From IMG/VR virus record IMGVR_UViG_2547132421_000005: DNA of 34,077 nucleotides. One strand, 5' to 3'. The notes below the pieces were generated by a model. The model did not search any database. It was not told the DNA's origin and worked only from the letters and a program-made list of their open reading frames with translations. The position numbers and the translations under genes are program-made. This document shows positions 4,072 to 34,077 of the stretch, piece after piece; the stretch's first letter is position 1; every line of letters begins with the position of its first letter. Source of the DNA: a virus (taxonomy: Duplodnaviria; Heunggongvirae; Uroviricota; Caudoviricetes).

Positions 4072-4686
4072 TTATCTAAAAGTCTTTCCACTTTTAACAT
4101 CTAGGTATATTCTGTTCGACAACGTCATTCCTCCGCAATATGTGAAATAGATGTTTTCACCCTTATTGCTTGATGCCATCCACCCTCCGATTTCCTTAAA
4201 ATCGCTTTCCGTGCAGACCCCTTCATTTATTAACTTCCTAGCTGCCGAAGAAAACTCTTTTTTGTATATACGGTAGTCATCAGATCCTTTGATTAAAGTA
4301 TCATCTCCGCTCGCATTTTCAGCAGGATCTGATGGCCTTTCACTGCTAAGATCACTAAGTTTAACCCATTCTGAAAACTTGCCATTAACGATTCCATTTT
4401 TTCTTGTGCAGGATTTATTACCTTCTTTAATATATTCGCTTTCCCCTCCAACACATGAGGCTGAATATGGCTCAGTTATACGAACCCATTCACCTTTTTT
4501 TTCTAGAAAATCTACGCCTTCCCTGAAAAATAGTTTCCCAGCCACTCCACATTTACTTGAAGGGCAGGTATGTCTTTCCGTTCGATCAACAACAACCCAT
4601 AGTTTTGATTCATTTTTTGCCATTGCCGATGGTATTTGAGATGAGACAATTAACGTAAGCCCTAAAATTAGTATTGATTTTTTCAT
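4072..4686 (-). CDS. Secreted/periplasmic Cys-rich protein of unknown function, 204 aa
   Basis: Track ORF; N-terminal signal peptide MKKSILILGLTLIVSSQIPSAMA then mature region with about 10 Cys; AT-rich; own terminator downstream. Confidence 0.65.
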   Translation of the reverse strand: MKKSILILGLTLIVSSQIPSAMAKNESKLWVVVDRTERHTCPSSKCGVAGKLFFREGVDFLEKKGEWVRITEPYSASCVGGESEYIKEGNKSCTRKNGIVNGKFSEWVKLSDLSSERPSDPAENASGDDTLIKGSDDYRIYKKEFSSAARKLINEGVCTESDFKEIGGWMASSNKGENIYFTYCGGMTLSNRIYLDVKSGKTFR

Positions 4687-8375: not shown

Positions 8376-8744
8376 TCAGGCGGCTTTGATAGTCATATCA
8401 TCTGAATCAAATATTCCTGATGTATCGATATCGGTAATTCTTATTCCTTCGCTACCATCCATTGGAGGCCATCCTTCCTGACCATTTCCATCATTCCAGT
8501 CGAACTCACACACAACACCATATGCATTTAAGTCGCTTGAAATTGCTATAAGCAGAGCATGTTGCGCCAGCATGATTAATACAGCATTTAATACAGAGCC
8601 GTGTTTATTGAGTCGGTATTCAGAGTCTGACCAGAAATTATTAATCTGGTGAAGTTTTTCCTCTGTCATTACGTCATGGTCGATTTCAATTTCTATTGAT
8701 GCTTTCCAGTCGTAATCAATGATGTATTTTTTGATGTTTGACAT
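8376..8744 (-). CDS. ea10: Ea10-type single-strand binding protein, 122 aa
   Basis: Track ORF; same length and position as lambda ea10. Confidence 0.8.
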   Translation of the reverse strand: MSNIKKYIIDYDWKASIEIEIDHDVMTEEKLHQINNFWSDSEYRLNKHGSVLNAVLIMLAQHALLIAISSDLNAYGVVCEFDWNDGNGQEGWPPMDGSEGIRITDIDTSGIFDSDDMTIKAA

Positions 8745-17970: not shown

Positions 17971-18312
17971 TTGTATGCGATATCATCCAAAAGGATGAGT
18001 TCCTGCATGCAGGATATTTACAATCGTAAAAACTACACTATGATACCCAGAGTGTCAGTTTGTATAAAAACTCTGTTTACGCTGAAGAAACAATTGAGAT
18101 GCAACTTAAAGTTGGTAAACATGCCAGTCAAAATATATAATATTATGATTCCACGCAGCTATATATAATATAACAGATTGGTTTAATAATTTGTCTTTGT
18201 GAGTTAAATACATAATTTTATACTTGTGATGCAATGAAATTTTCCTTATTGTTGAACTGGCGAATATTGATTTTCCACCTATACTTACCTGGTGTAACCC
18301 CAATGATATCAG

Positions 18313-19053
18313 GTGGATAATATGCCATACATATGTTCTATCATTTTGGTGTTGAACTCGTTTGATGTCCGAATCGGTAAAGAAGATATTTTGTTTAAAA
18401 AAGGAAGTGCTGTTCTCATTGATTACAATTTAAAAGATTTTTTTTCATCAAATATAGATCATGTAATGATCGTAGATGTTGAAGAGAAAACAGTTAATGA
18501 TTTCTTTAAAAGCAACACACTCTCACCTTTTTCTGTAAGAAGGTTTTATCCGGCATACTTGATGGTGGAATGTGAAGATTTTTCATTGTTAAAGAACTTG
18601 ATTGCATGCTTGAATTGTGATGGCAGAACTGTGGATTTTGTTAGAAATCAAATATCACTTGCATGTCTTGCTATCTTATCTTCAGAGAAAATAGTGCAAA
18701 GTTTTTTATTTGGATGTCTTAATAGTTTAGGAAGTAAAGTTAAGGCTATTATTCACACGGATATATCTGCAGCATGGAGACTTTGTGATATATCTTCAAG
18801 ACTGTATCTGAGTGAAAGTCTGTTAAAAAGAAAATTAAAGCACGAAGGCTTATCATTTAGTAAGTTAATTCTTGAAGAGCGAATGGTGATGGCGGAAAGG
18901 TTATTAAGCTACAATTTATATTCTGTTGGAAAAGTTGCTGAGATATGCGGTTATGAAAACACGTCATATTTTGTAAGTGTTTTCAGAAGGTATTTTGGTG
19001 TTCCTCCCCATCAATATTCATCAAGATTTTTTTTAGAAAAAGACATGATGTAA
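18313..19053 (+). CDS. AraC-family transcriptional regulator (AppY/EnvY-like), 246 aa
   Basis: Track ORF; C-terminal AraC HTH (LSESLLKRKLKHEGLSFSKLILEERMVMAERLL...VGKVAEICGYENTSYFVSVFRRYFGVPPHQY); strongly AT-rich. Confidence 0.8.
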   Translation: MDNMPYICSIILVLNSFDVRIGKEDILFKKGSAVLIDYNLKDFFSSNIDHVMIVDVEEKTVNDFFKSNTLSPFSVRRFYPAYLMVECEDFSLLKNLIACLNCDGRTVDFVRNQISLACLAILSSEKIVQSFLFGCLNSLGSKVKAIIHTDISAAWRLCDISSRLYLSESLLKRKLKHEGLSFSKLILEERMVMAERLLSYNLYSVGKVAEICGYENTSYFVSVFRRYFGVPPHQYSSRFFLEKDMM

Positions 19054-19114
19054 CGTGATGCGTTTTAATGATTTTGTAATTTTCGTATTTGATAATTGTA
19101 TGATGCTTTCAGCT

Positions 19115-19146
19115 ACGCCAGAATAATCGCGGCGTTTTTCTTTTTG
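19115..19146 (+). terminator. Candidate terminator after the AraC-family gene
   Basis: acgcc-agaataatcgc-ggcgt hairpin (5-bp stem) followed by ttttctttttg; weak stem. Confidence 0.3.
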
Positions 19147-19240
19147 AATAGATGTTCAAGCCTTACGCTAATGTAACTTCTATACCTTTCCTCTTCGTTC
19201 CGAACCGTGTACACCATCCGTTATTTGCGGAGGTGAGGCT

Positions 19241-19296
19241 ATGAAATCCATGGATAAGTTAACAACGGGTGTCGCCTATGGCACCTCAGCAGGTAG
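19241..19296 (+). pseudogene. 5' fragment (18 codons) of a class II holin S (S21/EssD-like), truncated by IS3
   Basis: GGAGGTGAGG RBS, then MKSMDKLTTGVAYGTSAG with the dual-start MKSM motif, directly followed by the IS3 left inverted repeat at 19297. Hand-read. Confidence 0.6.
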
Positions 19297-19361
19297 TGAT
19301 CTTACCCAGCAATAGTGGACACGCGGCTAAGTGAGTAAACTCTCAGTCAGAGGTGACTCAC

Positions 19362-19661
19362 ATGACAAAAACAGTATCAACCAGTAAAAAACCCCGTAAA
19401 CAGCATTCGCCTGAATTTCGCAGTGAAGCCCTGAAGCTTGCTGAACGCATCGGTGTTACTGCCGCAGCCCGTGAACTCAGCCTGTATGAATCACAGCTCT
19501 ACAACTGGCGCAGTAAACAGCAAAATCAGCAGACGTCTTCTGAACGTGAACTGGAGATGTCTACCGAGATTGCACGTCTCAAACGCCAGCTGGCAGAACG
19601 GGATGAAGAGCTGGCTATCCTCCAAAAGGCCGCGACATACTTCGCGAAGCGCCTGAAATGA
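19362..19661 (+). CDS. insE: IS3 transposase OrfA (InsE), 99 aa
   Basis: Track ORF 19353..19661; [54 protein letters not shown]. Confidence 0.9.
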
Positions 19662-20524
19662 AGTATGTCTTTATTGAAAAACATCAGGCTGAGTTCAGCA
19701 TCAAAGCAATGTGCCGCGTGCTCCGGGTGGCCCGCAGCGGCTGGTATACGTGGTGTCAGCGGCGGACAAGGATAAGCACGCGTCAGCAGTTCCGCCAACA
19801 CTGCGACAGCGTTGTCCTCGCGGCTTTTACCCGGTCAAAACAGCGTTACGGTGCCCCACGCCTGACGGATGAACTGCGTGCTCAGGGTTACCCCTTTAAC
19901 GTAAAAACCGTGGCGGCAAGCCTGCGCCGTCAGGGACTGAGGGCAAAGGCCTCCCGGAAGTTCAGCCCGGTCAGCTACCGCGCACACGGCCTGCCTGTGT
20001 CAGAAAATCTGTTGGAGCAGGATTTTTACGCCAGTGGCCCGAACCAGAAGTGGGCAGGAGACATCACGTACTTACGTACAGATGAAGGCTGGCTGTATCT
20101 GGCAGTGGTCATTGACCTGTGGTCACGTGCCGTTATTGGCTGGTCAATGTCGCCACGCATGACGGCGCAACTGGCCTGCGATGCCCTGCAGATGGCGCTG
20201 TGGCGGCGTAAGAGGCCCCGGAACGTTATCGTTCACACGGACCGTGGAGGCCAGTACTGTTCAGCAGATTATCAGGCGCAACTGAAGCGGCATAATCTGC
20301 GTGGAAGTATGAGCGCAAAAGGTTGCTGCTACGATAATGCCTGCGTGGAAAGCTTCTTTCATTCGCTGAAAGTGGAATGTATCCATGGAGAACACTTTAT
20401 CAGCCGGGAAATAATGCGGGCAACGGTATTTAATTATATCGAATGTGATTACAATCGGTGGCGGCGGCACAGTTGGTGTGGCGGCCTCAGTCCGGAACAA
20501 TTTGAAAACCAGAACCTCGCTTAG
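19658..20524 (+). CDS. insF: IS3 transposase OrfB (InsF; normally made as an OrfAB frameshift fusion), 288 aa
   Basis: Track ORF; DDE integrase-core region ([31 protein letters not shown]...HTDRGGQY...). Confidence 0.9.
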
Positions 20525-20554
20525 GCCTGTGTCCATATTACGTGGGTAGGATCA

Positions 20555-20683
20555 AATGCAGCCTCCCCCCGACTGGCAGACACCGCTGAACGGGATTATT
20601 TCACCCTCCGGGAACGACTGGTAATGATGCAGGCCCAACTTGAAGGTGCTCAGCAATACATAACCGAGCAGTGTTTAAAGTAA
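20555..20683 (+). pseudogene. 3' remnant of the spanin genes Rz/Rz1 (5' part, endolysin and most of holin absent)
   Basis: Immediately after IS3: one frame gives MQPPPDWQTPLNGIISPSGNDW-stop (Rz1-like C-terminus), another gives ...RERLVMMQAQLEGAQQYITEQCLK-stop (Rz-like C-terminus). Hand-read. Confidence 0.6.
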
Positions 20684-20820
20684 AATCTTAACTACAATAT
20701 GATTCATTTTGATGATTGTTTCATAAGGAACAGTGAAGTAAGATCTAAGAGGAGTTAAATTTTATACAGTATAATCATAATATTGCAGCAAGGTGGTTAT
20801 AATTGAAAGAATATTTAGAT

Positions 20821-22278
20821 ATGAATACATCTCATGTAAGAGTTGTTACTCATATGTGTGGGTTCCTGGTTTGGCTCTATAGTCTTTCAATGTTGCCACC
20901 AATGGTTGTAGCATTGTTTTATAAAGAAAAAAGCCTGTTCGTTTTCTTTATAACTTTCGTTATATTTTTTTGCATTGGTGGCGGAGCGTGGTATACAACT
21001 AAGAAATCTGGCATTCAATTACGTACCCGTGATGGGTTTATTATAATTGTAATGTTTTGGATTTTGTTTTCTGTTATTAGTGCATTCCCTTTATGGATTG
21101 ACTCAGAACTTAATTTAACGTTCATTGATGCTCTGTTTGAAGGGGTTTCTGGAATAACAACAACAGGAGCAACTGTAATTGATGATGTTAGTTCATTACC
21201 TCGGGCATATTTGTACTATCGGTCACAGTTAAATTTTATAGGTGGTTTAGGAGTTATTGTTCTGGCGGTTGCTGTATTGCCATTATTGGGTATTGGTGGT
21301 ACAAAGCTTTATCAGTCAGAAATGCCGGGGCCATTTAAGGATGACAAACTCACTCCCCGCCTGGCCGATACGTCACGGACACTGTGGATAACTTATTCTT
21401 TATTAGGTATTGCTTGTATTGTCTGTTATAGACTTGCAGGAATGCCTTTGTTTGATGCTATTTGTCACGGGATTTCCACAGTTTCGCTTGGTGGTTTCTC
21501 AACTCATAGCGAGAGTATCGGATATTTTAATAACTATTTGGTTGAGCTGGTGGCTGGTTCTTTTTCCCTGCTATCGGCTTTCAACTTCACTCTTTGGTAT
21601 ATTGTTATTAGCAGGAAAACGATAAAACCTTTAATCAGAGATATTGAACTTCGTTTCTTTCTGTTAATAGCCTTAGGGGTGATCATTGTTACCTCTTTCC
21701 AGGTCTGGCATATAGGTATGTATGACTTGCATGGAAGTTTTATTCATTCGTTTTTTCTTGCCAGCTCCATGCTCACTGATAATGGTTTAGCTACGCAGGA
21801 TTATGCAAACTGGCCCACGCACACGATAGTGTTTTTGCTGTCGTCAAGTTTCTTTGGGGGATGTATAGGTTCAACTTGTGGTGGAATTAAGTCACTTCGA
21901 TTTCTTATACTTTTCAAACAAAGCAAACACGAGATAAATCAGCTTTCTCATCCCAGAGCGTTGTTGAGTGTAAATGTAGGAGGGAAGATAGTTACAGATC
22001 GTGTAATGAGGTCTGTATGGAGTTTCTTTTTTCTTTATACTCTCTTCACGGTGTTTTTTATACTGGTGTTAAATGGTATGGGATATGATTTTCTTACATC
22101 ATTTGCAACAGTGGCTGCATGTATTAATAATATGGGATTAGGTTTTGGGGCTACTGCATCGTCATTCGGAGTGCTTAATGACATTGCAAAATATTTAATG
22201 TGCATAGCTATGATTCTTGGTCGCCTTGAAATTTATCCTGTTATTATATTGTTTTCAGGTTTTTTTTGGCGCTCCTAA
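20821..22278 (+). CDS. trkG: TrkG/TrkH-family K+ uptake membrane protein, 485 aa
   Basis: Internal ATG of track ORF 20803..22278 (MNTSHVRVVTHMCGFLVWLYSLSMLPPMVVALFYK...), recognised as the Rac-prophage trkG type; polytopic membrane protein; AT-rich. Confidence 0.9.
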   Translation: MNTSHVRVVTHMCGFLVWLYSLSMLPPMVVALFYKEKSLFVFFITFVIFFCIGGGAWYTTKKSGIQLRTRDGFIIIVMFWILFSVISAFPLWIDSELNLTFIDALFEGVSGITTTGATVIDDVSSLPRAYLYYRSQLNFIGGLGVIVLAVAVLPLLGIGGTKLYQSEMPGPFKDDKLTPRLADTSRTLWITYSLLGIACIVCYRLAGMPLFDAICHGISTVSLGGFSTHSESIGYFNNYLVELVAGSFSLLSAFNFTLWYIVISRKTIKPLIRDIELRFFLLIALGVIIVTSFQVWHIGMYDLHGSFIHSFFLASSMLTDNGLATQDYANWPTHTIVFLLSSSFFGGCIGSTCGGIKSLRFLILFKQSKHEINQLSHPRALLSVNVGGKIVTDRVMRSVWSFFFLYTLFTVFFILVLNGMGYDFLTSFATVAACINNMGLGFGATASSFGVLNDIAKYLMCIAMILGRLEIYPVIILFSGFFWRS

Positions 22279-22415
22279 TATATGGCTGATTTATAATTGT
22301 GAGTTTAATATTATATTGACTCACTCATTGATCCAATACCTAACTTTACCAGCAACACCTCCGCCCCCAGTAGCACTGGCTGCTGGGGTGCGTTTTATTC
22401 ATAAAGCAAGGCTGT

Positions 22416-23204
22416 ATGAGCGAGAAATTAAAGATAGTCTATCGCCCATTACAAGAATTGTCACCGTATGCGCACAACGCCAGGACGCACAGTACTGAGC
22501 AGGTGGCACAACTGGTAGAAAGTATTAAGCAATTCGGCTGGACTAATCCGGTGCTGATTGACGAAAAGGGCGAAATTATTGCGGGTCACGGTCGTGTTAT
22601 GGCGTCTGAAATGCTCAAAATGGATTCTGTTCCGGTCATTGTTCTGTCTGGCCTGACGGATGAGCAGAAAAAGGCGTACCGCCTGGCAGATAATCGCCTA
22701 CCGATGAATGCTGGCTGGGATGAAGATCTGTTGCGGATGGAGCTGTCGGACCTAATCAATGCTGATTTTGATGTCTCCCTGACAGGCTTCGGCCCGACAG
22801 AAATTGATGAACTGTTGACGGATGTTTTGCCCGGTACAGGAAATAAGGAGGAGCCGTATACGACGAAAATTGATACGCCTGTTTATGAGCCGTCGGGCGG
22901 TAAACCGGATATCAGTGAACTGTACGACGATACGAAAACTCAGGAGCTGATCAGCCGGATACGTTCGGCGTCCCTTGAGCCTGATATTGAGAAATTCCTC
23001 CTGTGTGCGGCAGAACGTCACACGGTGTTTAATTTCAGCAGAATTGCGGACTATTACGCTCATGCCCCCGCTGAAATTCAGTGCCTTTTCGAGGAGTCGG
23101 CGCTGGTGATCATTGATTATCAGCAGGCTATTGAAAATGGATTTGTCCGAATGACGCAGCGCATGGTGGCGATCATGCATAGCGGGGAGGAGGAATATGC
23201 GTGA
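22416..23204 (+). CDS. ParB-like nuclease (ParB N-terminal/sulfiredoxin-fold) domain protein, 262 aa
   Basis: Track ORF; NPVLIDEKGEIIAGHGRVMA contains the ParB-N GxGR-type motif. Confidence 0.7.
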   Translation: MSEKLKIVYRPLQELSPYAHNARTHSTEQVAQLVESIKQFGWTNPVLIDEKGEIIAGHGRVMASEMLKMDSVPVIVLSGLTDEQKKAYRLADNRLPMNAGWDEDLLRMELSDLINADFDVSLTGFGPTEIDELLTDVLPGTGNKEEPYTTKIDTPVYEPSGGKPDISELYDDTKTQELISRIRSASLEPDIEKFLLCAAERHTVFNFSRIADYYAHAPAEIQCLFEESALVIIDYQQAIENGFVRMTQRMVAIMHSGEEEYA

Positions 23205-24060
23205 TGATTTTTGCGCCTTTATTCTGACTCACGGGCGACCGGACAAAGTTCTGACTTACCGGACGTTGCGTCGTGCTGGCTATACCGGGAAAATTTTTAT
23301 CGTTGTTGATGATGAAGATAAGACACGGCATCAGTACATGGCTGAATTTGGTGAACAGGTGCTGGTATTTTCCAAAGCAGATATTGCCAGTCGTTTTGAC
23401 GAAGCCGATAATTTTGGTGACCGCCGCTCAATTTTTTACGCCCGTAATGCCTGTTTCGACCTGGCAAAACTGGTCGGGTGTAAATACTTCATTCAGCTCG
23501 ATGATGATTATCACGAGTTCCAGTTTCGGGTGGATCGCAACTATGACCAGGCCTATTTCCCGATAAGGAAACTGGATGCGATCCTTTCTGAAATGCTGGC
23601 GTATTACGAATCAATACCCGCGCTTTCCATCGCTATGTCGCAGGGCGGGGATTTTCTTGGTGACAATGGCGGCCATGCTTCGTGGGTGAAACGCAAGGCA
23701 ATGAACAGCTTTATCTGTTCGGTTGATCGACCGTTCTCATTCATGGGGCGCATTAACGAGGATGTGAATACGTACACGAATCTCGGTCGCCGTGGTGAAT
23801 TGTTTATGACGATCGGTGCTGTCCAGTTAGGGCAGAAACAGACGCAGAAAAACAGCGGCGGAATGACCGAGCTGTATCTGGATTCCGGGACCTACGTTAA
23901 AAGTTTTTATTCCGTCATTTATGCGCCGTCGTGCGTAAAAATCTCACTGATGGGCGCCAGCCATAAACGCATTCACCATCAGGTCACCTGGAACAACGCT
24001 GCAGTAAAAATCCTTCACGAAAAATACAGGAAGAAGACACCCTGCATATTAATGGGGTGA
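23197..24060 (+). CDS. Hypothetical protein, possibly a GT-A-fold nucleotide-sugar transferase, 287 aa
   Basis: Track ORF; N-terminal FILTHGRPDKVLTYRTL...IFIVVDDEDK and later IQLDDDYHEF resemble the GT-A signature with a DxD motif. Tentative. Confidence 0.45.
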   Translation: MRDDFCAFILTHGRPDKVLTYRTLRRAGYTGKIFIVVDDEDKTRHQYMAEFGEQVLVFSKADIASRFDEADNFGDRRSIFYARNACFDLAKLVGCKYFIQLDDDYHEFQFRVDRNYDQAYFPIRKLDAILSEMLAYYESIPALSIAMSQGGDFLGDNGGHASWVKRKAMNSFICSVDRPFSFMGRINEDVNTYTNLGRRGELFMTIGAVQLGQKQTQKNSGGMTELYLDSGTYVKSFYSVIYAPSCVKISLMGASHKRIHHQVTWNNAAVKILHEKYRKKTPCILMG

Positions 24061-24063
24061 CAA

Positions 24064-24315
24064 ATGATTCCGTATTCGAAAGTCGAGTCTCTGGCAGCGT
24101 GCCGGATGACTGCACAACAAATCGCTGACGTACTGGATGTTGATCTGAACCGACTGAAAGAAAATCGGGAAGCAATGACAAATTTTTACGCGTCCATCCG
24201 TAAGGGCAGAGCGAAAGGTGAAGCCGAGCTACGGGCGGCATTGTTTAAGCTTGCCAGAAAAGGGGATGCCTTTGCCCTGCGCGAACTACTCAGGGTGGAT
24301 AAAAATCAGGACTAA
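24064..24315 (+). CDS. Hypothetical small protein upstream of the terminase, 83 aa
   Basis: Track ORF; helix-rich, basic; tightly coupled to the following gene. Confidence 0.45.
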   Translation: MIPYSKVESLAACRMTAQQIADVLDVDLNRLKENREAMTNFYASIRKGRAKGEAELRAALFKLARKGDAFALRELLRVDKNQD

Positions 24316-24318
24316 CTG

Positions 24319-25413
24319 ATGAGCAGACCGGACTGGGGGGCGTTGCAGCAGGAGTATATTGCTGAATACACCCGCTCCGGTATATCTCCGGTGGCATGGT
24401 GTGAAGCAAGGGGACTGAATTACGCAACAGCCCGTCGTTACATCAAAAAACCTCCGAAAAATGCGCAGACAGAAATGCGCAAAACTGCGCAAAAAAGTGC
24501 GCAGAAAAAATCTGCGCAGACTGCACAAAAGCGGAACGGAAAATCTCAGGAAAAAAAGCCAGTATCCGATGCGTACCTGAATGAGGGCGATGCGGAAGAA
24601 ATTTCGTTCTGTCCCGATGAATTCGGCGTTTCTGACCAGCAGGCGAAATTCGCAATGCTGGTTGCCCAGGGGAAAAAACTCGTTGAGGCATATCGCCTGG
24701 CAGGATACGAGTCAGAGGGGAATGCGGCCTACGTAACCGCCAGCCAGCTCCTAAGAAATCCTAAGGTTTTTCGTGCTATCAGCTACTTCCGCAATCAGTA
24801 CCAGAAACGCTATACCGCAGACCTGGATTTACTGGTGAGTCAGTTGATGGCCATTGTCCAAGCCGACCCCAATCAGTTGGCACAATTTCGCCGTGTTAAC
24901 TGCCGTTATTGCTGGGGCGAGAATCATCACTACCAGTGGCGCGATATAGCAGAATTCGATAAGGCAGCGGCGCAGGCCTCCAGAGATGGCAAACCCGAGC
25001 CGGAATATGGTGGCCTTGGCTTTGTTGATAACGCCATACCCAATCCGGACTGCCCGAAGTGCTGCGGTGAGGGAACGGGGCAGCTTTATATGGCTGATAC
25101 CACTCTGCTTGATGGGGATGCGCGGCAATTATATGCAGGGGCAAAGCTCGGAAAATTTGGTGTTGAGATCCTGCTGGAGGATAAGGCTGCCGCCCGGCGT
25201 GAATTGTTGCGTTTGCTTGCTGCTGGCGGGGCTTTATGTGCAGATAAGCGGCTACAGGAACTGGAAATTGAACGGCGCAGAATGGAAAACCAGAAGCTGC
25301 GCAAAGAGATCGAAACGGTGGAGGATAATGAACATCCCCAACCTGTTGCGATCAATATTAATGTGGTTGATGCCAGAGTAAGGAGTGATGAAGATGATCT
25401 CTCCGACGCTTAA
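24319..25413 (+). CDS. Terminase small subunit (candidate), 364 aa
   Basis: Track ORF; N-terminal HTH-like region (ARGLNYATARRYIKK) typical of TerS; immediately upstream of the terminase large subunit. Confidence 0.6.
   Translation: MSRPDWGALQQEYIAEYTRSGISPVAWCEARGLNYATARRYIKKPPKNAQTEMRKTAQKSAQKKSAQTAQKRNGKSQEKKPVSDAYLNEGDAEEISFCPDEFGVSDQQAKFAMLVAQGKKLVEAYRLAGYESEGNAAYVTASQLLRNPKVFRAISYFRNQYQKRYTADLDLLVSQLMAIVQADPNQLAQFRRVNCRYCWGENHHYQWRDIAEFDKAAAQASRDGKPEPEYGGLGFVDNAIPNPDCPKCCGEGTGQLYMADTTLLDGDARQLYAGAKLGKFGVEILLEDKAAARRELLRLLAAGGALCADKRLQELEIERRRMENQKLRKEIETVEDNEHPQPVAININVVDARVRSDEDDLSDA
24461..24531 (+). repeat. Five to six tandemly spaced TGCGCA(G/A)A units inside the 5' part of the terS gene
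   Basis: atgcgcagac...atgcgcaaaa...tgcgcaaaaaa...tgcgcagaaaaaa...tgcgcagact...tgcacaaaag seen directly; encodes the low-complexity stretch TEMRKTAQKSAQKKSAQTAQK. Confidence 0.6.
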
Positions 25414-26695
25414 TGTGCCTCAGGCGCGATTTCTTTCAATGCCCCACAAATTTAAAGCCTATGTCGCTGGTTTTGGCTCGGGTAAAACATGGATTGGGTG
25501 TGGTGGCATATGCAAGGGGATTTGGGAACATCCTGGTATAAATCAGGGATATTTTGCGCCAACGTATCCCCAAATTCGCGATATTTTTTACCCTACAGTG
25601 GAAGAAGTTGCTGCTGACTGGGGATTGAATGTAAAAATTAATGAGGGAAATAAAGAGGTTCATTTTTATTACGGACGTCAGTATCGGGGAACCACTATCT
25701 GCAGAACGATGGAGAAGCCGCAAACGATCGTCGGTTTCAAAATTGGTAATGCGCTGGTGGATGAACTGGACATTTTGCCGAAGGAAAAAGCCAGAACAGC
25801 GTGGCGCAAGATAATTGCGCGTATGCGTTATAAGGTTGATGGACTTCGCAACGGTATTGACGTTACAACCACGCCGGAAGGATTCAAATTTGTCTACGAG
25901 CAGTTTGTTAAAGCCGTGCGTGAAAAAACAGAGCTGGCCTCACTGTATGGTCTGGTGCAGGCATCTACTTTCGATAATGAAAAGAACCTGCCAGCAGATT
26001 ACATTCCTTCGCTTCTTGAGTCATACCCTCCAGAGCTGATTAAAGCCTATCTTCGAGGACAGTTTACTAACCTGACAAGTGGTACTGTTTACCATCAGTT
26101 TGACCGGAAACTGAATAATTGCGAAGAAGTGGAGCAGCCAGGGGAGCCGATTTATATTGGGATGGATTTTAACGTTGGAAAGATGGCGGGGGGCGTCCAT
26201 GTACTGCGTTTGGGGCTTCCATGTGCGGTAACTGAAATCATCAATGCCTACGATACACCGGATATGATCCGCATCATTAAAGAACGCTTCTGGCTGTATG
26301 ACGGGAATGATTACCGGAAAGTGAGGGAGATTTATATTTATCCAGATGCTTCCGGAGATTCCAGAAAATCAAGTAACGCAAGTACGACGGATATAGCCCA
26401 GCTTAAGCAGGCTGGTTTTAACGTTGTGGTGAACAGCTCGAACCCGCCAGTAAAAGATCGCGTTAACTCAATGAATGCAATGTTCTGCAATGCCAATGGC
26501 GAACGTCGCTATAAAGTTAATGTGAAGCGTTGTCCGGTATATGCCGAATCTCTGGAGCAACAGGTCTGGGATGATAAGGGGGAGCCTGATAAAAAATCAG
26601 GCAACGATCACCCGAATGATGCCGGAGGCTATTTCATCGTTAAGCAATTCCCTATTATCAAACCGACCGGAAGAGTCACATCACTTCGGATTTAA
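25385..26695 (+). CDS. Terminase large subunit, 436 aa
   Basis: Track ORF; Walker A-like AGFGSGKTW near the N-terminus; conserved position upstream of portal. Start codon uncertain. Confidence 0.8.
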   Translation: MMKMISPTLNVPQARFLSMPHKFKAYVAGFGSGKTWIGCGGICKGIWEHPGINQGYFAPTYPQIRDIFYPTVEEVAADWGLNVKINEGNKEVHFYYGRQYRGTTICRTMEKPQTIVGFKIGNALVDELDILPKEKARTAWRKIIARMRYKVDGLRNGIDVTTTPEGFKFVYEQFVKAVREKTELASLYGLVQASTFDNEKNLPADYIPSLLESYPPELIKAYLRGQFTNLTSGTVYHQFDRKLNNCEEVEQPGEPIYIGMDFNVGKMAGGVHVLRLGLPCAVTEIINAYDTPDMIRIIKERFWLYDGNDYRKVREIYIYPDASGDSRKSSNASTTDIAQLKQAGFNVVVNSSNPPVKDRVNSMNAMFCNANGERRYKVNVKRCPVYAESLEQQVWDDKGEPDKKSGNDHPNDAGGYFIVKQFPIIKPTGRVTSLRI

Positions 26696-26697
26696 TT

Positions 26698-28104
26698 ATG
26701 GCTGATATATCAACACCCAACCTCGACTATAACGATATGCTGGAGGCGTGGGATATTAACGACGCACTGATGGGCGGTACGCTTGAAATGCGCAGGCAGG
26801 GGGAAAATTATCTCCCAAAATGGCCTAACGAAGATGAAGACGCTTATAAAAAACGCCTGTCTGTGGCTACGCTACTTCCTGTGTATGAAGAAAGCATTAA
26901 GCAAAATATTGGACGCATATTTGCAGAGCCGACAGTATTGAGTGAGGAAACGCCGGAAAAAATCAGGGAATATGCAGAAAATATCGACATGGAGGGGAGC
27001 CGACTGGATGTGTGGGCGCAGCAATTTTTCAGCCTCGCATTTCAGTATGGTGTGGCACATGCGCTGGTGGACTATCCACGAACGGATATGAAGGAGATCC
27101 GGACAAAAGCCGATGAAAATGCGGCTGGTGGTCGCCCATACGTTACGATGCTGAATCCACGCCAGGTTATTGGATGGAAATCGAAAGTTGAAAAAGGGAA
27201 AGTTGTTCTTACTGATTTGCGTATAAAAGAAGTCATCATTGTTGATGGTGATGATTTCGGGCAGAAGAAGGTGGAGCAGATCCGCCATATTATGCCCCGT
27301 TGCGTTGAAATTTATCGACGCAGCGAAGGTACTAATGGCGAATCTGTCTGGACGCTTCACGAGTCATGGAATACCAGCCGTGATGATATTCCTCTGGTAA
27401 CACTGTATACGAAGAAAACAGGGTTTATGCGTGGTACACCGCCATTGCTTAATCTTGGCTTGCTGAATATCAAGCACTGGCAAAGCCAGAGCGAGCAGGA
27501 CAATATTCTTCATGTTGCCCGCGTCCCATTGCTGGTGGCCTACGGGCTGGACAGGAATGAAGAACTGACGGTTGGTGCATCCACCGCTACGATTTTTGAG
27601 GACAGAACAAAAAATGGCCTCGAATATGTTGAACATAGTGGGGCAGCGATAGAATCTGGCGAAACATCACTGGAGAAGCTGGAAAATCAGATGCGTCATG
27701 CCGGCGCTAAACTTCTGCGGGCTGAAAATACATCCACCAAATCTGTTGATCAGACTAATGAAGAGCGGATGCAGGAAAACTCGCCGCTTTATACAATGGC
27801 GAACTCCCTCGAAGATGCCCTCGATAATATTCTCCAGATAATGGCGGAATGGATCGGAGAGAGTTGCGGCGGCAATGTGAATGTGCGCACTGAACTGGAT
27901 GTATCTGCCCAGGTGTTTGACTCATCCTCCGCGCTGGCTGTTCAGTCATTGCGTCAGGGCGGTGATATACGTCAGATTGATGCGGTTCGGGTGTTGCAGG
28001 CGTTGAAATTTATCGATCAGGATTCCCGTCCAGAGGAAGTGATCGATGAATTAAAAAATCAGAGTGTAATGCTGATGGAAATCAATGATGCAAACCGTGA
28101 ATGA
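26698..28104 (+). CDS. Portal protein, 468 aa
   Basis: Track ORF; size and position between terminase large subunit and head morphogenesis gene. Confidence 0.7.
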   Translation: MADISTPNLDYNDMLEAWDINDALMGGTLEMRRQGENYLPKWPNEDEDAYKKRLSVATLLPVYEESIKQNIGRIFAEPTVLSEETPEKIREYAENIDMEGSRLDVWAQQFFSLAFQYGVAHALVDYPRTDMKEIRTKADENAAGGRPYVTMLNPRQVIGWKSKVEKGKVVLTDLRIKEVIIVDGDDFGQKKVEQIRHIMPRCVEIYRRSEGTNGESVWTLHESWNTSRDDIPLVTLYTKKTGFMRGTPPLLNLGLLNIKHWQSQSEQDNILHVARVPLLVAYGLDRNEELTVGASTATIFEDRTKNGLEYVEHSGAAIESGETSLEKLENQMRHAGAKLLRAENTSTKSVDQTNEERMQENSPLYTMANSLEDALDNILQIMAEWIGESCGGNVNVRTELDVSAQVFDSSSALAVQSLRQGGDIRQIDAVRVLQALKFIDQDSRPEEVIDELKNQSVMLMEINDANRE

Positions 28105-29200
28105 ACGGCTGCGTGATGAATCAATTGCTCATGCAGTCTGGATATCTCGCTATAGCACTGGTGTGGCTGCCAGAATGGTGAAAACACTGAATGACAGCGA
28201 TGCGGAGCTTACAGCTCGCCTGCTGGTGGCACTGGACAGCCTCGATCCAGGTAGTTTCACCGTTACGCGCCTGGAGTCACTTCTGGCGAGTGTCAGAGAG
28301 GTTAACCGCGCTGCTATTAACAGCATGTTTACCAGGCTCTCCGGAGAGCTGAACGAGCTGGCAGTTTATGAGGCTGGTTATCAGTTAAGTCTGTTTGATT
28401 CTCTGCTACCTGATTTTGTTGCTGATGTTCACCCTCTGGTTGGTATCTCACCTGATGCACTTTATGCCGCGGCAATGGCGCGACCATTCCAGGGACGACT
28501 GCTCAGTGAGTGGGCCTCAGATCTTGAGGCGGATCGGCTCAGACGCATAACAAATACGGTGCGTCAGGGTTTTTTGTTGGGGGATACCAATGAGCAGATC
28601 GCAAGAAAAATTCGGGGACATGTCAGTAAGGGATTTCAGGATGGTGCATTGCAGATGAGCCGGGCTAATGCGGCCAGCATTGCAAAAACAGCGGTTGGAC
28701 ATCTTGCTGCTACTGCCCGTGAGAGTTTTGCCAGCGCGAATAATGATTTGATTAAGGGTAAGCAATGGTTATCAACGCTTGATAATCGTACTACGCCACA
28801 ATGTCGAATCAGGGATCGCCTCAAATATACGCTGAATAATAAACCTGTAGGTCACAGCGTGCCTTATTTGCAGGGGCCGGGAAAAATTCATTTCTGCTGC
28901 CGCTCAACGGAAACGTTCATTCTGAAATCAGCGAAGGAACTGGGTATTGATGTTCGTGATATTTCCCCGGCTGAGCGGGCCAGCATGGATGGCGTGGTGG
29001 CCGGAGATACAACCTACAGGGAATGGTTTTTGCGTCAGCCTTACACCAGACAAAAACAGATTGTGGGGGAAACCCGGGCAAAGCTGATTCGGGATGGCGG
29101 TATGTCGCCAGATGAATTTTACACCGATAAAGGCGAATGGCTGACGCTGAAGCAACTCCGTGAGCGTGATGCACAGGTATTCAGAAAAGCAGGGATTTAA
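28085..29200 (+). CDS. Head morphogenesis / minor head protein (SPP1 gp7 / Mu F-like), 371 aa
   Basis: Track ORF; position after portal. Confidence 0.65.
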   Translation: MMQTVNERLRDESIAHAVWISRYSTGVAARMVKTLNDSDAELTARLLVALDSLDPGSFTVTRLESLLASVREVNRAAINSMFTRLSGELNELAVYEAGYQLSLFDSLLPDFVADVHPLVGISPDALYAAAMARPFQGRLLSEWASDLEADRLRRITNTVRQGFLLGDTNEQIARKIRGHVSKGFQDGALQMSRANAASIAKTAVGHLAATARESFASANNDLIKGKQWLSTLDNRTTPQCRIRDRLKYTLNNKPVGHSVPYLQGPGKIHFCCRSTETFILKSAKELGIDVRDISPAERASMDGVVAGDTTYREWFLRQPYTRQKQIVGETRAKLIRDGGMSPDEFYTDKGEWLTLKQLRERDAQVFRKAGI

Positions 29201-29219
29201 ATAAATCATTTATTACAAC

Positions 29220-29246
29220 AGGCTACCTTCGGGTGGCCTTTTTTAT
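29220..29246 (+). terminator. Intrinsic terminator after the head morphogenesis gene
   Basis: ggctacc-ttcg-ggtggcc hairpin (one wobble pair) followed by ttttttatt. Confidence 0.5.
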
Positions 29247-29304
29247 TGCTGCGATCCGGATGGTGAGCAGCGTAACTGTCGGAAGACTTAAACCAGGTAC
29301 TAAT

Positions 29305-30069
29305 ATGAAACTGAAAACGGTCGAGATTAACGGAAAACAATACGCAGAAATTGATACTGCTGGCCTGCCAGTTTATGTGCACGACGATGGTAAAGAAATC
29401 GGCTTCGATGCACCGCTGGCGATAAAAAAAATTACAGAGCTTAATGGCGAGGCAAAAAATCATCGCCTGGCTAAAGAAGCTGCAGAGGAAAAACTGGCTA
29501 AGTTTGCCGCTATCGAAGACCCGAAGAAGGCGATCGAGGCACTGGAAATGCTGTCAAAAATCGACCAGAAAAAGCTGATCGATGCGGGACAGGTTGACCA
29601 GGTTAAGGCAGAAATTACGAAAAATTTTCAGCAGCAATTAGATGAAGAAAAGCAACGCTCTCAGATGCTGGAGACGCAGCTTTACGATTCTATGATTGGC
29701 GGTAGTTTTGCGGGGTCAAAATATATTGCCGATAAAATTGCGATCCCGGCAGATTTATTACAAGCCCGCTTCGGGCAGGCATTCAAAGTGGAAGAAGGGA
29801 AGATCGTTGCTTATGACGCTTCCGGCAACAAAATTTATTCCCGCGCGAAGCCTGGCGAACTGGCGCAGTTTGATGAGGCGCTGGAGTTCCTCGTCGAAAA
29901 TTACCCTCAGAAAGACTACATCCTGAAAGCCAGTGGCAACAATGGCGGCGGCTCCCGTCCGACACAGCATGATATTGGTCAGAAAACGATGAAACGCTCT
30001 GCTTTTGATGCACTGGATGTTGCAGGTAAGCAAAACGCATTGAAAGACGGTATCACAATCGTTGATTAA
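29305..30069 (+). CDS. Scaffolding protein (candidate), 254 aa
   Basis: Internal ATG of track ORF 29233..30069 (MKLKTVEINGKQYAEIDTAG...); acidic, helix-rich; lies directly upstream of the capsid gene. Confidence 0.55.
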   Translation: MKLKTVEINGKQYAEIDTAGLPVYVHDDGKEIGFDAPLAIKKITELNGEAKNHRLAKEAAEEKLAKFAAIEDPKKAIEALEMLSKIDQKKLIDAGQVDQVKAEITKNFQQQLDEEKQRSQMLETQLYDSMIGGSFAGSKYIADKIAIPADLLQARFGQAFKVEEGKIVAYDASGNKIYSRAKPGELAQFDEALEFLVENYPQKDYILKASGNNGGGSRPTQHDIGQKTMKRSAFDALDVAGKQNALKDGITIVD

Positions 30070-30167
30070 CACATTTGTCAGCTTCCGGATGGGAGCTGGT
30101 GTCAGGGCTGGATAGCTCATTACTCCATCTATTCACAATTACGCAAATTTTTAAGGAATATTTAATT

Positions 30168-31307
30168 ATGGCTGGAAATACCCTGACCGGGTTGATCCCG
30201 ACTATTTATACCGCCCTGGATGTTGTATCCCGTGAGCAGGTAGGTTTTATCCCTGCGGTAGCAAAAAACGCAAAAGCTGACGCCGCAGCAAAAGATCAGA
30301 CGGTAACCGCGCCAGTTGCGCCTGAGGCGAAAACCGAAGATATCGTACCAGGGCCGTCAGCTCCGAATACCGGTGATCAAAATATTGGCACTGTTGATGT
30401 AAAAATTACTAAATCCAAAATGGCACCGGTTAAATGGAATGGTGAAGAACAACTGGCTCTTGGCCCTTCAGGGACTTACAACACCATTCTGGCTGATCAG
30501 TTCAAGCAGGCTTTTCGCGCCCTTGCAAACGAGGTTGAGGCTGATCTTGGTGCGTTGTATTTCGGTGCTTCCCGCGCCGTGGGAACCGCAGGGACAACGC
30601 CGTTTGGTGTTAAAGATGATCTTTCTGATGCTGCTCTGGCTCGTCAGGTTCTGGAGGATAACGGCGCACCGACAACCGATCTGCAGATGGTGCTTGGCTC
30701 CACTGCCATTGCTAATTTGCGCGGAAAACAGTCTGTATTGTTTAAAGTGAATGAATCCGGCACTGAACAGCTACTGCGTGAGGGCGTGTTGGGGCGTCTG
30801 GAGGGATTCAATATTCACAGTTCGGCAGGTGTGAAACGAGCGCCAAAGGTTGCTGCAACTGGTTATCTCGTGAATGGAGAGAAAAAAGAAGGCGATGTTC
30901 TTATTTCCATTGATACTGGTTCGGGGAGTATTTCTGCAGGTCAGATTGTTACGTTCGCTGGTGATCCGAATCAGTATGTTGTGGCAGCAGCGACCAGCAA
31001 TCTGATTACTCTTGCAGCGCCCGGACTGCGTCAGGATCTGGCCGATGATACTGCCATCACAGTTGTTGGGGCCTTTACTGCAAATATGGCGTTTGATCGC
31101 AACGCGTTTCTGCTGGCATCCCGTACTCCGGCAATGCCGGAAGGTGGCGATAATGCTGATGATGTAATGAATGTTACGGACCCGATTTCAGGGATTACGT
31201 TCCAGATTGCACTGTATCGTCAGTATCGCCAGGTGCGCTATGAAGTTGGACTGGCATGGGGTGTTTCATCAGTGAAGCCGGCACATGGTTGTCTGATTCT
31301 TGGTTAA
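30168..31307 (+). CDS. Major capsid protein (candidate), 379 aa
   Basis: Internal ATG of track ORF 30075..31307 (MAGNTLTGLIPTIYTALDVVSREQVGFIPAVAKN...); AGGA RBS; followed by a strong terminator. Confidence 0.65.
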   Translation: MAGNTLTGLIPTIYTALDVVSREQVGFIPAVAKNAKADAAAKDQTVTAPVAPEAKTEDIVPGPSAPNTGDQNIGTVDVKITKSKMAPVKWNGEEQLALGPSGTYNTILADQFKQAFRALANEVEADLGALYFGASRAVGTAGTTPFGVKDDLSDAALARQVLEDNGAPTTDLQMVLGSTAIANLRGKQSVLFKVNESGTEQLLREGVLGRLEGFNIHSSAGVKRAPKVAATGYLVNGEKKEGDVLISIDTGSGSISAGQIVTFAGDPNQYVVAAATSNLITLAAPGLRQDLADDTAITVVGAFTANMAFDRNAFLLASRTPAMPEGGDNADDVMNVTDPISGITFQIALYRQYRQVRYEVGLAWGVSSVKPAHGCLILG

Positions 31308-31316
31308 ACATTCAAA

Positions 31317-31337
31317 CGGGGCTTCGGCCCCATTTTT
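31317..31337 (+). terminator. Intrinsic terminator after the capsid gene
   Basis: ggggc-ttcg-gcccc hairpin followed by attttta. Confidence 0.55.
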
Positions 31338-31349
31338 AATGGGGGGCAT

Positions 31350-31526
31350 ATGGCCGGATTAACTAAAGAGCAAAGAGCACAGCGTGAAGCCGCACAAAAA
31401 ACGCAAATTGAGTTAGTGGTTATGGTGACCGATTATCAGATGTTTCCCGGCGCACCAACTATCGCTAATGTTCATCCTGATGAAGTTGACAACTGGAAGG
31501 CTATGGGCTGGAAAACTCAGGAGTAA
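31350..31526 (+). CDS. Small hypothetical head-region protein, 58 aa (not in track)
   Basis: My own translation: MAGLTKEQRAQREAAQKTQIELVVMVTDYQMFPGAPTIANVHPDEVDNWKAMGWKTQE; ends 3 nt before the next gene. Hand-read. Confidence 0.4.
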   Translation: MAGLTKEQRAQREAAQKTQIELVVMVTDYQMFPGAPTIANVHPDEVDNWKAMGWKTQE

Positions 31527-31529
31527 CAC

Positions 31530-31925
31530 ATGATCACTTACGTGACCTGTGATGACGTTGATAATGCGTTTGGGAACGCCTGGACGAGTGAGAACGCTAA
31601 AAATAAAGCTGTTTTAATGGCTAATGCCTGGCTTAATGGTTTCAACCTGAAAATTAACCCATCCCGTATTCCGGAAGAGGTAAAACTTGCGGGAGCGTAT
31701 GCAGCCAGAATTGCCTCATTCGGTAAGTTGTTTCAGCAGAAAAATGATTCTGGCGTTGTTATCAGTAAAGCCGTGTCGGCTGACGGGGTCAGTGTATCGA
31801 AATCATTTTCTGAGTTGCCAGCAAACAGCACTGCATTGCTTGAACCCGATTTACAGCTTGCGATAGCACTGCTGAAACCGTACGGACTTAGTCGCTCACA
31901 AGTCAGGGTTGTGAGGGGGGGATAA
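31530..31925 (+). CDS. Head-tail connector / DNA-packaging (gp6-like) protein, 131 aa
   Basis: Track ORF; position after capsid; translationally coupled to the next gene. Confidence 0.45.
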   Translation: MITYVTCDDVDNAFGNAWTSENAKNKAVLMANAWLNGFNLKINPSRIPEEVKLAGAYAARIASFGKLFQQKNDSGVVISKAVSADGVSVSKSFSELPANSTALLEPDLQLAIALLKPYGLSRSQVRVVRGG

Positions 31926-32308
31926 TGGGGCTTCGTGAAGAGATTCAGTCAGAGGTTGCCGCTGCTTTTGATGAGGATTTAGCGGACGCCGTGAGTGATA
32001 TTTCTGGTTCTTACGTTACGCACCGGCACTGGGATCCTGTGACGGAAACTGGCGGCGAATCCACCGCAATCTATACCGGGCGAGGCGTGTTGACACGTTA
32101 TAAGCTGGGCAGAATTGATGGGATTAATATTTTGCATGGTGACCTTAAATTAACCGCTCTGGTATGCGAGGTTACGGATAAACCAGCTGTCGACCATATT
32201 ATTGAGATTTATGATCCTGTATCAAGGCAGTTACAACGATACGAGGTAATTACAGCAAGTGTAGATCCTTCCGCATCAGTTTACTCTATCCAGTTAAGGA
32301 GAGCGTAA
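31925..32308 (+). CDS. Head-tail adaptor / head closure protein (candidate), 127 aa
   Basis: Track ORF; position. Confidence 0.45.
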   Translation: MGLREEIQSEVAAAFDEDLADAVSDISGSYVTHRHWDPVTETGGESTAIYTGRGVLTRYKLGRIDGINILHGDLKLTALVCEVTDKPAVDHIIEIYDPVSRQLQRYEVITASVDPSASVYSIQLRRA

Positions 32309-32659
32309 ATGGCAAAGGCATGGGATATAGAACCGTCAATATTTGCCGGGATGATTGAGGAAGATGTAGGGCTGAAGATTCGCTACATCGCTATTCAGAT
32401 TCTTACTGCTATTGATATTGCTGCTCCGGTTGATACCGGACGTTTCAGAAATAACAACCTGGTGTCGTTACAGCATCCCGATTTTGGTATATCTGATAAC
32501 GTGGATCCGAACGGTACGATTGCTGTTCAGCGTGGGATCGGGGTTATTTCGAAAGCTGCAAATTACGGGGTTATTTATATCCAAAATAACCTTCCTTATG
32601 CAGAGGCTCTTGAAAACGGTCATTCACAACAAGCGCCAACTGGCGTGTATGCCAACGCT
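32309..32659 (+). pseudogene. Tail-component gene (HK97 gp10-like family, tentative) truncated at its 3' end by IS1
   Basis: Track ORF 32309..32686 runs into IS1; its last residues (GDAANLLI) are encoded by the IS1 terminal repeat, so the native C-terminus is missing. Confidence 0.5.
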
Positions 32660-32714
32660 GGTGATGCTGCCAACTTACTGATTTAGTGTATGATGGTGTT
32701 TTTGAGGTGCTCCA

Positions 32715-32990
32715 GTGGCTTCTGTTTCTATCAGCTGTCCCTCCTGTTCAGCTACTGACGGGGTGGTGCGTAACGGCAAAAGCACCGCCGGACATCAGCG
32801 CTATCTCTGCTCTCACTGCCGTAAAACATGGCAACTGCAGTTCACTTACACCGCTTCTCAACCCGGTACGCACCAGAAAATCATTGATATGGCCATGAAT
32901 GGCGTTGGATGCCGGGCAACAGCCCGCATTATGGGCGTTGGCCTCAACACGATTTTACGTCACTTAAAAAACTCAGGCCGCAGTCGGTAA
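32715..32990 (+). CDS. insA: IS1 InsA, 91 aa
   Basis: Track ORF; [43 protein letters not shown]. Confidence 0.9.
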
Positions 32991-33412
32991 CCTCGCGCAT
33001 ACAGCCGGGCAGTGACGTCATCGTCTGCGCGGAAATGGACGAACAGTGGGGCTATGTCGGGGCTAAATCGCGCCAGCGCTGGCTGTTTTACGCGTATGAC
33101 AGGCTCCGGAAGACGGTTGTTGCGCACGTATTCGGTGAACGCACTATGGCGACGCTGGGGCGTCTTCTGAGCCTGCTGTCGGCCTTTGACGTGGTGATAT
33201 GGATGACGGATGGCTGGCCGCTGTATGAATCCCGCCTGAAGGGAAAGCTGCACGTAATCAGCAAGCGATATACGCAGCGAATTGAGCGGCATAACCTGAA
33301 TCTGAGGCAGCACCTGGCACGGCTGGGACGGAAGTCGCTGTCGTTCTCAAAATCGGTGGAGCTGCATGACAAAGTCATCGGGCATTATCTGAACATAAAA
33401 CACTATCAATAA
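32909..33412 (+). CDS. insB: IS1 InsB reading frame (normally expressed as an InsAB' frameshift fusion)
   Basis: Track ORF; overlaps the 3' end of insA in the -1 frame, as in IS1. Confidence 0.85.
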
Positions 33413-33427
33413 GTTGGAGTCATTACC

Positions 33428-34077
33428 CCCGCGTTATACCACGTCCCATTAATGCAATACTGAATTGGCCTTGCCTGAGTTGTATCAATTAATTCATCAC
33501 GGTTTCCGTTAACTGAACCCGTAACGACATAACCTGACCTGTCAGACCAGCCGGGGCCTTTCCATGTCTGAACAGATGACAGACCGCCAAGGCGAATACC
33601 TGTAATAAACCTTGAGTTACATTCTGCCTGCGTATATGCACCAACATCCCCCGCAGAGGGTTTGCGTGTTGTGGTGTAAAACTCTGACCAGTTAGCTTCA
33701 AAGCCATAACCATCACGCGCTGAACGATAAAAAATACCGCCGTTCCTGTAATTCACGCGGAACTGTACAGCAGGGCAACTCCCCGCATTCATATTGAAGT
33801 GGAGGATTAATGTCGATGCACCACTGATATCTGCATCATAAACACCGCTATTCCAGTTCCAGCCAACAGCTTTATCATTTGCGACCCTGCGTCCTGTTTG
33901 CCCTAAAGCAAATGCAGGCTGCTGGTTTTTCGTGTTGTAGTCTCGTCGCCAGCCAGGAGCGTAAGCATCACCATGATTAATATAAGTGAATTGAGCGTTA
34001 GTAATTCCGCCACCGCTGGACGTGCTCGGCGTAGTAACGCGTATGGTCATTGCGCCGCGAGTGCCAATAACTTCCAC
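33428..34077 (-). pseudogene. Tail-fibre-like gene fragment on the minus strand, 3' end truncated by IS1; 5' end beyond the window
   Basis: Track ORF 33406..34077 (no real start, runs to the window edge); Gly/Ser/Thr/Asn-rich beta-type sequence typical of tail-fibre distal domains; last 6 codons and stop come from the IS1 end. Confidence 0.45.

Follow-up and report, generated by a model that had tools for sequence, protein, structure and literature searches.

Near the right end of the window, by which we mean the whole 34,077-nt stretch of viral DNA that was analysed, a plus-strand tail-component gene and a minus-strand tail-fibre gene converge on a single IS1 element. The question raised by this locus is which rearrangement brought the two genes to the element. 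The original prediction was an IS1-mediated deletion and/or inversion that had removed most of the tail genes from a prophage that also has a deletion in its lysis region.

The element occupies 32660–33427 on the plus strand and was identified as a complete, IS1A-like IS1 from its sequence and Pfam domains. Its 768 bp and its imperfect terminal inverted repeats of ~23 bp are those of the IS1 family; read directly from the sequence, the left repeat, IRL (32660–32682), is ggtgatgctgccaacttactgat, and the right repeat, IRR (33405–33427), ends in atcaataagttggagtcattacc. The element carries insA (32715–32990), the insB' frame (to 33412), and a slippery A6C motif for −1 frameshifting at 32966–32972. 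Its ORFs match Zn_ribbon_InsA (1.3e-21) and HTH_Tnp_IS1 (4.7e-31), corresponding to the N- and C-terminal parts of InsA, as well as DDE_Tnp_IS1 (6.4e-77), and the element is intact. At the identical locus of strain PSJ-14, the annotation is an IS1A-family transposase with programmed frameshift. A search of the window revealed no second IS1 copy.

Comparison with an IS-free relative placed the boundaries between native and IS1 DNA at 32659|32660 and 33427|33428, with a 1-bp ambiguity at the right. The left 9-bp flank, gccaacgct (32651–32659), has no matching copy at the right, and the right flank, cccgcgtta (33428–33436), has none at the left. The two agree at 2/9 positions, which is chance level, and no direct repeat appeared at any shift of the IS1 boundaries. 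The differing flanks reported in the original prediction thus hold with the boundaries fixed against the relative, and the 8–9-bp direct duplication of a simple insertion is absent. Simple IS1 insertions in related prophages do carry such duplications (GAATCCAC in PF9285, GACGGTCG in ET734, and GTATAACTG in PSJ-14), and IS1 copies that mark other deletions in prophages of this type (WP8-S18-CRE-02, 74-2, and 13C1065T) lack them.

The gene to the left encodes a tail-completion or Neck1 (HK97 gp10-like) protein, of which codons 1–117 of 126 are native (32309–32659, plus strand) and 100% identical to strain ETEC6 (L010:565–915). The chimeric ORF (32309–32686) matches PHROG 169, 'tail completion or Neck1 protein' (E = 1.9e-52), and gave no Pfam match at E < 0.01. 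Its position agrees with a Neck1 assignment: the two ORFs upstream match the head-tail adaptor Ad1 and head closure Hc1 PHROGs, and the tail terminator comes next in relatives. The intact protein ends in YANAFHGVLQAYK and a stop. Here, its last 9 residues (9/126 codons) are replaced by GDAANLLI, eight codons that, with the following stop, are derived from IS1 (32660–32686), as had been proposed from the sequence.

The right flank (33428–34077, minus strand) corresponds to the 3' 650 nt of a silent S'v tail-fibre cassette of the kind found in the invertible G segment of phage Mu, collinear with and 99.8% identical to ETEC6 L010:18121–18770. The minus-strand ORF (33406–34077) encodes the C-terminal part of a tail fibre, with matches to Pfam gp37_C and to PHROG tail-fibre families (down to 6e-62), and shares 96% amino acid identity over 319 aa with the variable part of Mu S' by tblastn. 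The right-hand ORF is accordingly a tail gene, and IS1 does supply its end: six codons and a stop (VMTPTY; 33406–33427, minus strand). Of the native end, NGTWYNAGSI and a stop in both ETEC6 and Mu, only the last two codons (SI) and the stop are missing here. Describing the two genes as truncated was therefore correct insofar as both ORFs are cut and overstated in degree, the losses being 9 of 126 codons on one side and 2 codons on the other. For annotation, it matters that the chimeric ORFs 32309–32686 and 33406–34077 are junction artefacts and not genes.

The reading frame of the S'v cassette runs past the end of the window to a gix site. The minus-strand tail-fibre ORF without a 5' part is a normally silent, promoterless S'v cassette in its native place, beside the gix site and the gin remnant. 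Its lack of a 5' part reflects how the invertible system is built and is no sign of damage. A promoterless, reversed 3' fragment of a tail-fibre gene beside an invertase belongs to the normal make-up of a G/C-type switch and should not be taken as evidence of rearrangement.

To identify what once lay between the two flanks, we compared the window with complete E. coli genomes, 737 of which contain the left flank. Two of these, strains YJ6 and ETEC6, in which a complete set of tail genes follows the same head-connector module, served as intact references. Strain C2 was considered as a further intact relative and rejected; its similarity is limited to the tail-fibre/invertible end, and its head-tail module is of a different, lambda type. 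By BLAST, window 31745–32659 equals ETEC6 L010:1–915 (100%), and window 33427–34077 equals L010:18120–18770 (99.8%) on the same strand; the 3 kb downstream in PSJ-14 remains collinear with ETEC6 to L010:21092. The missing interval is thus L010:916–18119, or 17,204 bp, which becomes 16,139 bp after subtraction of a 1,065-bp IS specific to ETEC6. It holds 14 complete tail genes: those for the tail terminator and tail tube, ydaY, a small ORF, the tape measure gene, M-, L-, K-, and I-like genes, J, lom, stf, and two tfa genes. After the two tfa genes, the intact relatives continue with the reverse tail-fibre fragment, a recombinase remnant, a diguanylate cyclase gene, and ybhB.

The locus consequently records a single deletion of ~16.1 kb with IS1 exactly at the junction and with no inversion relative to relatives in the same cassette orientation, which we call orientation B. 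One IS stands at the junction of flanks that are collinear, co-oriented, and 17.2 kb apart in ETEC6, as an IS-mediated deletion requires. Since the flanks lie on the same strand in ETEC6, one deletion accounts for the arrangement and no IS1 inversion is needed. The predicted loss of most tail genes is borne out, and the suggestion of an inversion is not, given this collinearity, the silent nature of the S'v cassette, and the single IS1.

The reversed orientation of the tail-fibre fragment has its own origin. In C2, 13C1065T, and YJ6, the 650-bp right flank forms the 3' end of a full-length forward stf, and in ETEC6 and the lineage of the window it is reversed and adjoins the recombinase remnant. 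The orientation switches within a 43-bp stretch present as inverted copies, which holds a 26-bp gix site and is not an IS end. Intact relatives have two such gix-type sites in inverted arrangement, TTCCTGTAAACCGAGGTTTTAGATAA on the recombinase side and TTATCGAATACCTCGGTTTACAGGAA inside stf, with 1 and 2 mismatches of 26 relative to the Mu gix sites. The 3.5-kb segment is 88–94% identical at the DNA level to the invertible segments of Mu, D108, P88, and P7 and is collinear with the S-U-U'-S'-gin layout of Mu. Annotations of ETEC6, YJ6, and C2 likewise reveal alternative C-terminal tail-fibre cassettes in opposite orientation, each with its assembly gene.

No gix-like site was found within the window; the gin-proximal site, located just right of it (L001:14462–14487), is the only one surviving in this lineage. 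The gene annotated as a recombinase, also just beyond the window (L001:14544–14738, plus strand), is a 195-bp gin remnant that encodes the first 64 residues of Gin, 61/64 identical to those of Mu, and then a stop. The same 64-aa N-terminal piece followed by a tfa fragment was present in every relative inspected, including C2, 13C1065T, 74-2, and EC529. With only the first 64 Gin codons left, the segment has no functional adjacent serine invertase, and its inversion would need an invertase supplied in trans. Both orientations nevertheless occur in nature: in queries spanning the junctions, 135 complete E. coli genomes had the cassette beside gin (orientation B, the one required by the window), and 126 had it joined to the constant part of stf (orientation A). 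A ratio of ~1:1 despite the gin stump suggests either inversion in trans by other resident invertases or an old polymorphism spread by recombination. Because the gix site inside stf was lost in the deletion, the remaining cassette is frozen and no longer invertible, and because it is in the orientation-B state, the deletion occurred in that state.

A related cassette was also found outside lambdoid prophages. The P1-like phage-plasmid pGF31-A (NZ_CP172153.1; L011 7996–10124) has a 97%-identical S'v cassette together with a full-length Cin-type recombinase, a likeness that shows a probable exchange of this host-range cassette among Mu-like, P1-like, and lambdoid elements.

Of the 5,426 complete E. 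coli genomes, only two contain the 2.2-kb stretch that includes both junctions: PSJ-14, from a human in Ecuador, and EC529, from chicken meat in Viet Nam. In both, it belongs to a lambda-like prophage that occupies the lambda attachment site, flanked by ybhC (left) and ybhB-bioA (right). The order begins with int-xis, exo-bet-gam, cI/cro/cII, O/P, the nin genes, Q, an IS3, and Rz/Rz1 remnants, and continues with trkG, a ynaK fragment, the terminase, portal, and P22-type capsid genes, three connector genes, and IS1. To the right, beyond the point where the window ends, the S'v frame of the minus-strand tail-fibre fragment reaches gix and is followed by the 195-bp plus-strand recombinase remnant, a tail-fibre-assembly fragment, the diguanylate cyclase gene, and ybhB. 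This last gene, a sensor diguanylate cyclase between the tail-fibre end and ybhB, is apparent cargo.

The IS1 of the window differs from the copy in PSJ-14 and EC529 at three bases (33167, 33181, and 33182), all within 16 bp, and the flanks are identical. The cluster looks like a short gene-conversion patch acquired from another IS1 copy. On account of these differences, the window represents a third assembly, and the absence of the extra ISEc22 and second IS1 of PSJ-14 likewise marks it as a third assembly of the same lineage. Judging from the sequences, the junction is common to the three by descent, inherited and not recurrent. In the early region of PSJ-14, an IS1 variant of only 92% identity, flanked by the 9-bp duplication GTATAACTG, and an ISEc22 were observed, both absent at the window positions 4473–4482 and 8557–8564. 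The PSJ-14 integrase gene is interrupted by ISKox3. These extra insertions indicate that IS accumulation is continuing within the lineage.

How the deletion arose can be proposed from these comparisons. The ancestor would have been a lambda-like, Rac-related prophage with a full siphovirus tail module followed by the Mu G-type segment in orientation B, in the order Sc-Sv(+), U(+), U'(−), S'v(−), gix, gin remnant. IS1 would first have inserted at one of the two junctions and then transposed, intramolecularly and replicatively, into the other site, a classical IS1 'adjacent deletion'. The interval between them would have been excised as a circle with a second IS1 and one copy of the target duplication, and then lost. 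Such a course would leave a single intact IS1 between unrelated flanks, with the lost span running from codon 118 of the tail-completion gene through the last two codons and stop of the silent S'v cassette. The placement of the tail fibre on the minus strand comes from a Gin-type site-specific inversion predating the deletion, not from IS1. We consider an insertion at one junction followed by an adjacent deletion into the other to be the probable course, though by no means an assured one. In its favour, IS1 is seen to undergo intramolecular replicative transposition in prophages of this type, the example being ET734 (described below).

An insertion preceding the deletion would have left characteristic junctions, which we reconstructed as queries: the right end of IS1 followed by gccaacgct and native downstream sequence, and the native cassette end followed by cccgcgtta and the left end of IS1. 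Among the matches listed for the 5,426 complete E. coli genomes (the best 40 pieces in ~370 IS1-rich records), no place covered at least 80% of either query, and no ancestral genome with an IS at one of the junctions was seen. Nor did any record in these genomes have only one of the two junctions of the window. The missing intermediate weighs little, because only two genomes carry the junction at all. Three candidates for one-junction records were rejected. In PF9285 and ET734, IS1 lies elsewhere, in the head-closure gene and 63 bp further upstream, and in pGF31-A the 97%-similar cassette is part of a P1-type C segment and the neighbouring IS1 is unrelated.

Missing target duplications commonly result from adjacent deletions or from recombination between IS copies (PMC11708052), and the latter provides a possible, less probable route here. 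IS1 could have inserted twice, independently and in the same direction, into the tail-completion gene and at the 3' end of S'v, duplicating its target each time, and RecA-dependent homologous recombination between the two copies could then have deleted the 16 kb. The one IS1 left behind would have its left flank from the insertion in the tail-completion gene and its right flank from that in S'v, a product indistinguishable from that of an adjacent deletion. The strains are rich in IS1, with a median of 11 places per genome, and relatives of the prophage carry two or three copies at once. Against this, two insertions and a recombination are needed in place of one insertion and one transposition, and IS1 was found at neither site among the matches listed for the 5,426 genomes. 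Since both routes yield an identical product and no intermediate has been retained, they are inseparable at this locus.

A one-step event, in which a new IS1 arrived together with the deletion, with no pre-existing copy and no duplication, is very unlikely. Rarer events of this kind have been proposed for some IS5 and IS481 cases (PMC11708052), and they would agree with the lack of an intermediate with a pre-existing IS1 among the matches listed; with the junction in only 2 of ~5,400 genomes, that lack is a weak argument. In the long-term evolution experiment, moreover, 14/14 IS-associated deletions were traced to a pre-existing IS (PMC11708052).

Still less probable is that the tail-fibre region was turned round by IS1 itself, whether or not a deletion took place as well, a reading prompted by two ORFs that converge on an IS1 lacking a duplication. 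Inversion by IS1 is seen in ET734 (NZ_CP100922.1; L002 8698–14217), where a prophage of this type has three IS1 copies in its tail region. The outer two are mutually inverted and bracket inverted tape-measure fragments, the two copies of the 8-bp target are inverted relative to each other (AATCTCTC / GAGAGATT), and the middle copy has a normal 8-bp duplication; this pattern is clearly the inversion outcome of intramolecular replicative transposition by IS1. An inversion of this type leaves two inverted IS1 copies with inverted target copies, and the window has one IS1. The right flank, furthermore, is collinear and uninverted with respect to IS1-free orientation-B prophages such as ETEC6, an arrangement shared by 135 genomes, and the orientation switches at the 26-bp gix site and not at an IS end. 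Least credible of all is an assembly artefact, in which a collapsed IS1 repeat, a classic cause of misjoins in view of its multiple copies, falsely joined distant regions, because the identical junction with the same bio-side context in the independently finished genomes of PSJ-14 (Ecuador) and EC529 (Viet Nam) cannot be an assembly accident of the window, whose own IS1, three bases off theirs, marks a third assembly. IS1-mediated inversion and assembly artefact are both effectively excluded, which leaves the adjacent deletion as the preferred explanation ahead of recombination between two copies.

The tail module is not the only loss. An IS3 (~18183–20554; ORF 19658–20524) takes the place of the lysis cassette and is followed by 3' remnants of Rz/Rz1 (20555–20700) and then trkG. 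The window is collinear with WP8-S18-CRE-02 up to 18182 and again from 20555, and the comparison identified the lost genes as essD, rrrD, and most of rzpD, so that the holin and the endolysin are gone along with most of the Rz spanin. PSJ-14 and EC529 share the IS3 and the lysis loss; in 74-2, an IS3 is located elsewhere and the lysis cassette is intact. With both the tail module and the lysis cassette lost, the prophage is defective, as originally proposed, and, being able neither to build tails nor to draw on a lysis cassette, it should be scored as cryptic.

Strain 74-2 (NZ_CP050044.1; L006 8002–8769) also has an IS1 one nucleotide different from that of PSJ-14, in the same orientation and with no duplication. 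This copy has the end of trkG on one side and the middle of the same S'v cassette on the other, at junctions equivalent to window positions 22290 and 33831, so that its deletion (window-equivalent 22291–33830) wholly encloses that of the window. The larger deletion may have grown from the same IS1 as a nested extension, or it may have arisen independently; successive adjacent deletions from both ends of the IS may fit the pair. The segment with its truncated gin may, in turn, be flipped in trans by unrelated resident invertases, which would explain the ~1:1 orientations. Taken together, the two ideas, stepwise erosion of this family of attachment-site prophages by one founder IS1 and flipping of its Mu-type segment in trans, are rather doubtful.

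Every component of the locus is already known, from deletion formation by IS1 to the Mu/P1 invertible segment and Rac-like cryptic prophages, and what we describe is ordinary prophage decay. At the population level, it provides a further example of IS1 driving prophage decay in E. coli. Reif and Saedler reportedly described IS1-promoted adjacent deletions in the E. coli gal region in 1975. The present case resembles IS1 adjacent deletions and duplication-less IS deletions (PMC11708052) in its single intact IS at the junction, its lack of a duplication, and its flanks collinear with an undeleted relative; no mechanistic difference from known IS1 adjacent deletions is visible, and no pre-deletion insertion was found among the matches listed.

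With the G segment of Mu and the C segment of P1 and P7, the segment shares the Sc-Sv-U / U'-S'v layout and the 26-bp gix-type sites. Unlike those segments, it sits in a lambda-like siphovirus, where it is fused to a lambda Stf-type N-terminal domain (Pfam phage_tail_N), and its invertase is a 64-aa remnant. In the genome of the window, moreover, one gix site and three of the four cassettes have been deleted, and the switch is dead.

The closest comparison for the prophage as a whole is Rac, whose map in K-12 reads rzpR-trkG-ynaK-ydaY-tmpR-lomR-stfR-tfaR-pinR. The trkG, ynaK, and ydaY genes were observed in Rac order (window 20803–22278 and neighbours, together with the annotations of L003, L009, and L010), alongside a complete P22-type capsid and terminase module. 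This prophage type has trkG, ynaK, ydaY, the tape measure gene, lom, stf, tfa, and an invertase in the same order as Rac, and it looks like a much fuller relative of the phage that gave rise to Rac. Both are defective through internal deletions and IS insertions. Unlike Rac, the prophage described here is integrated at the lambda attachment site and not at the Rac site, and it has kept a complete packaging and head module and lost its tail module instead.
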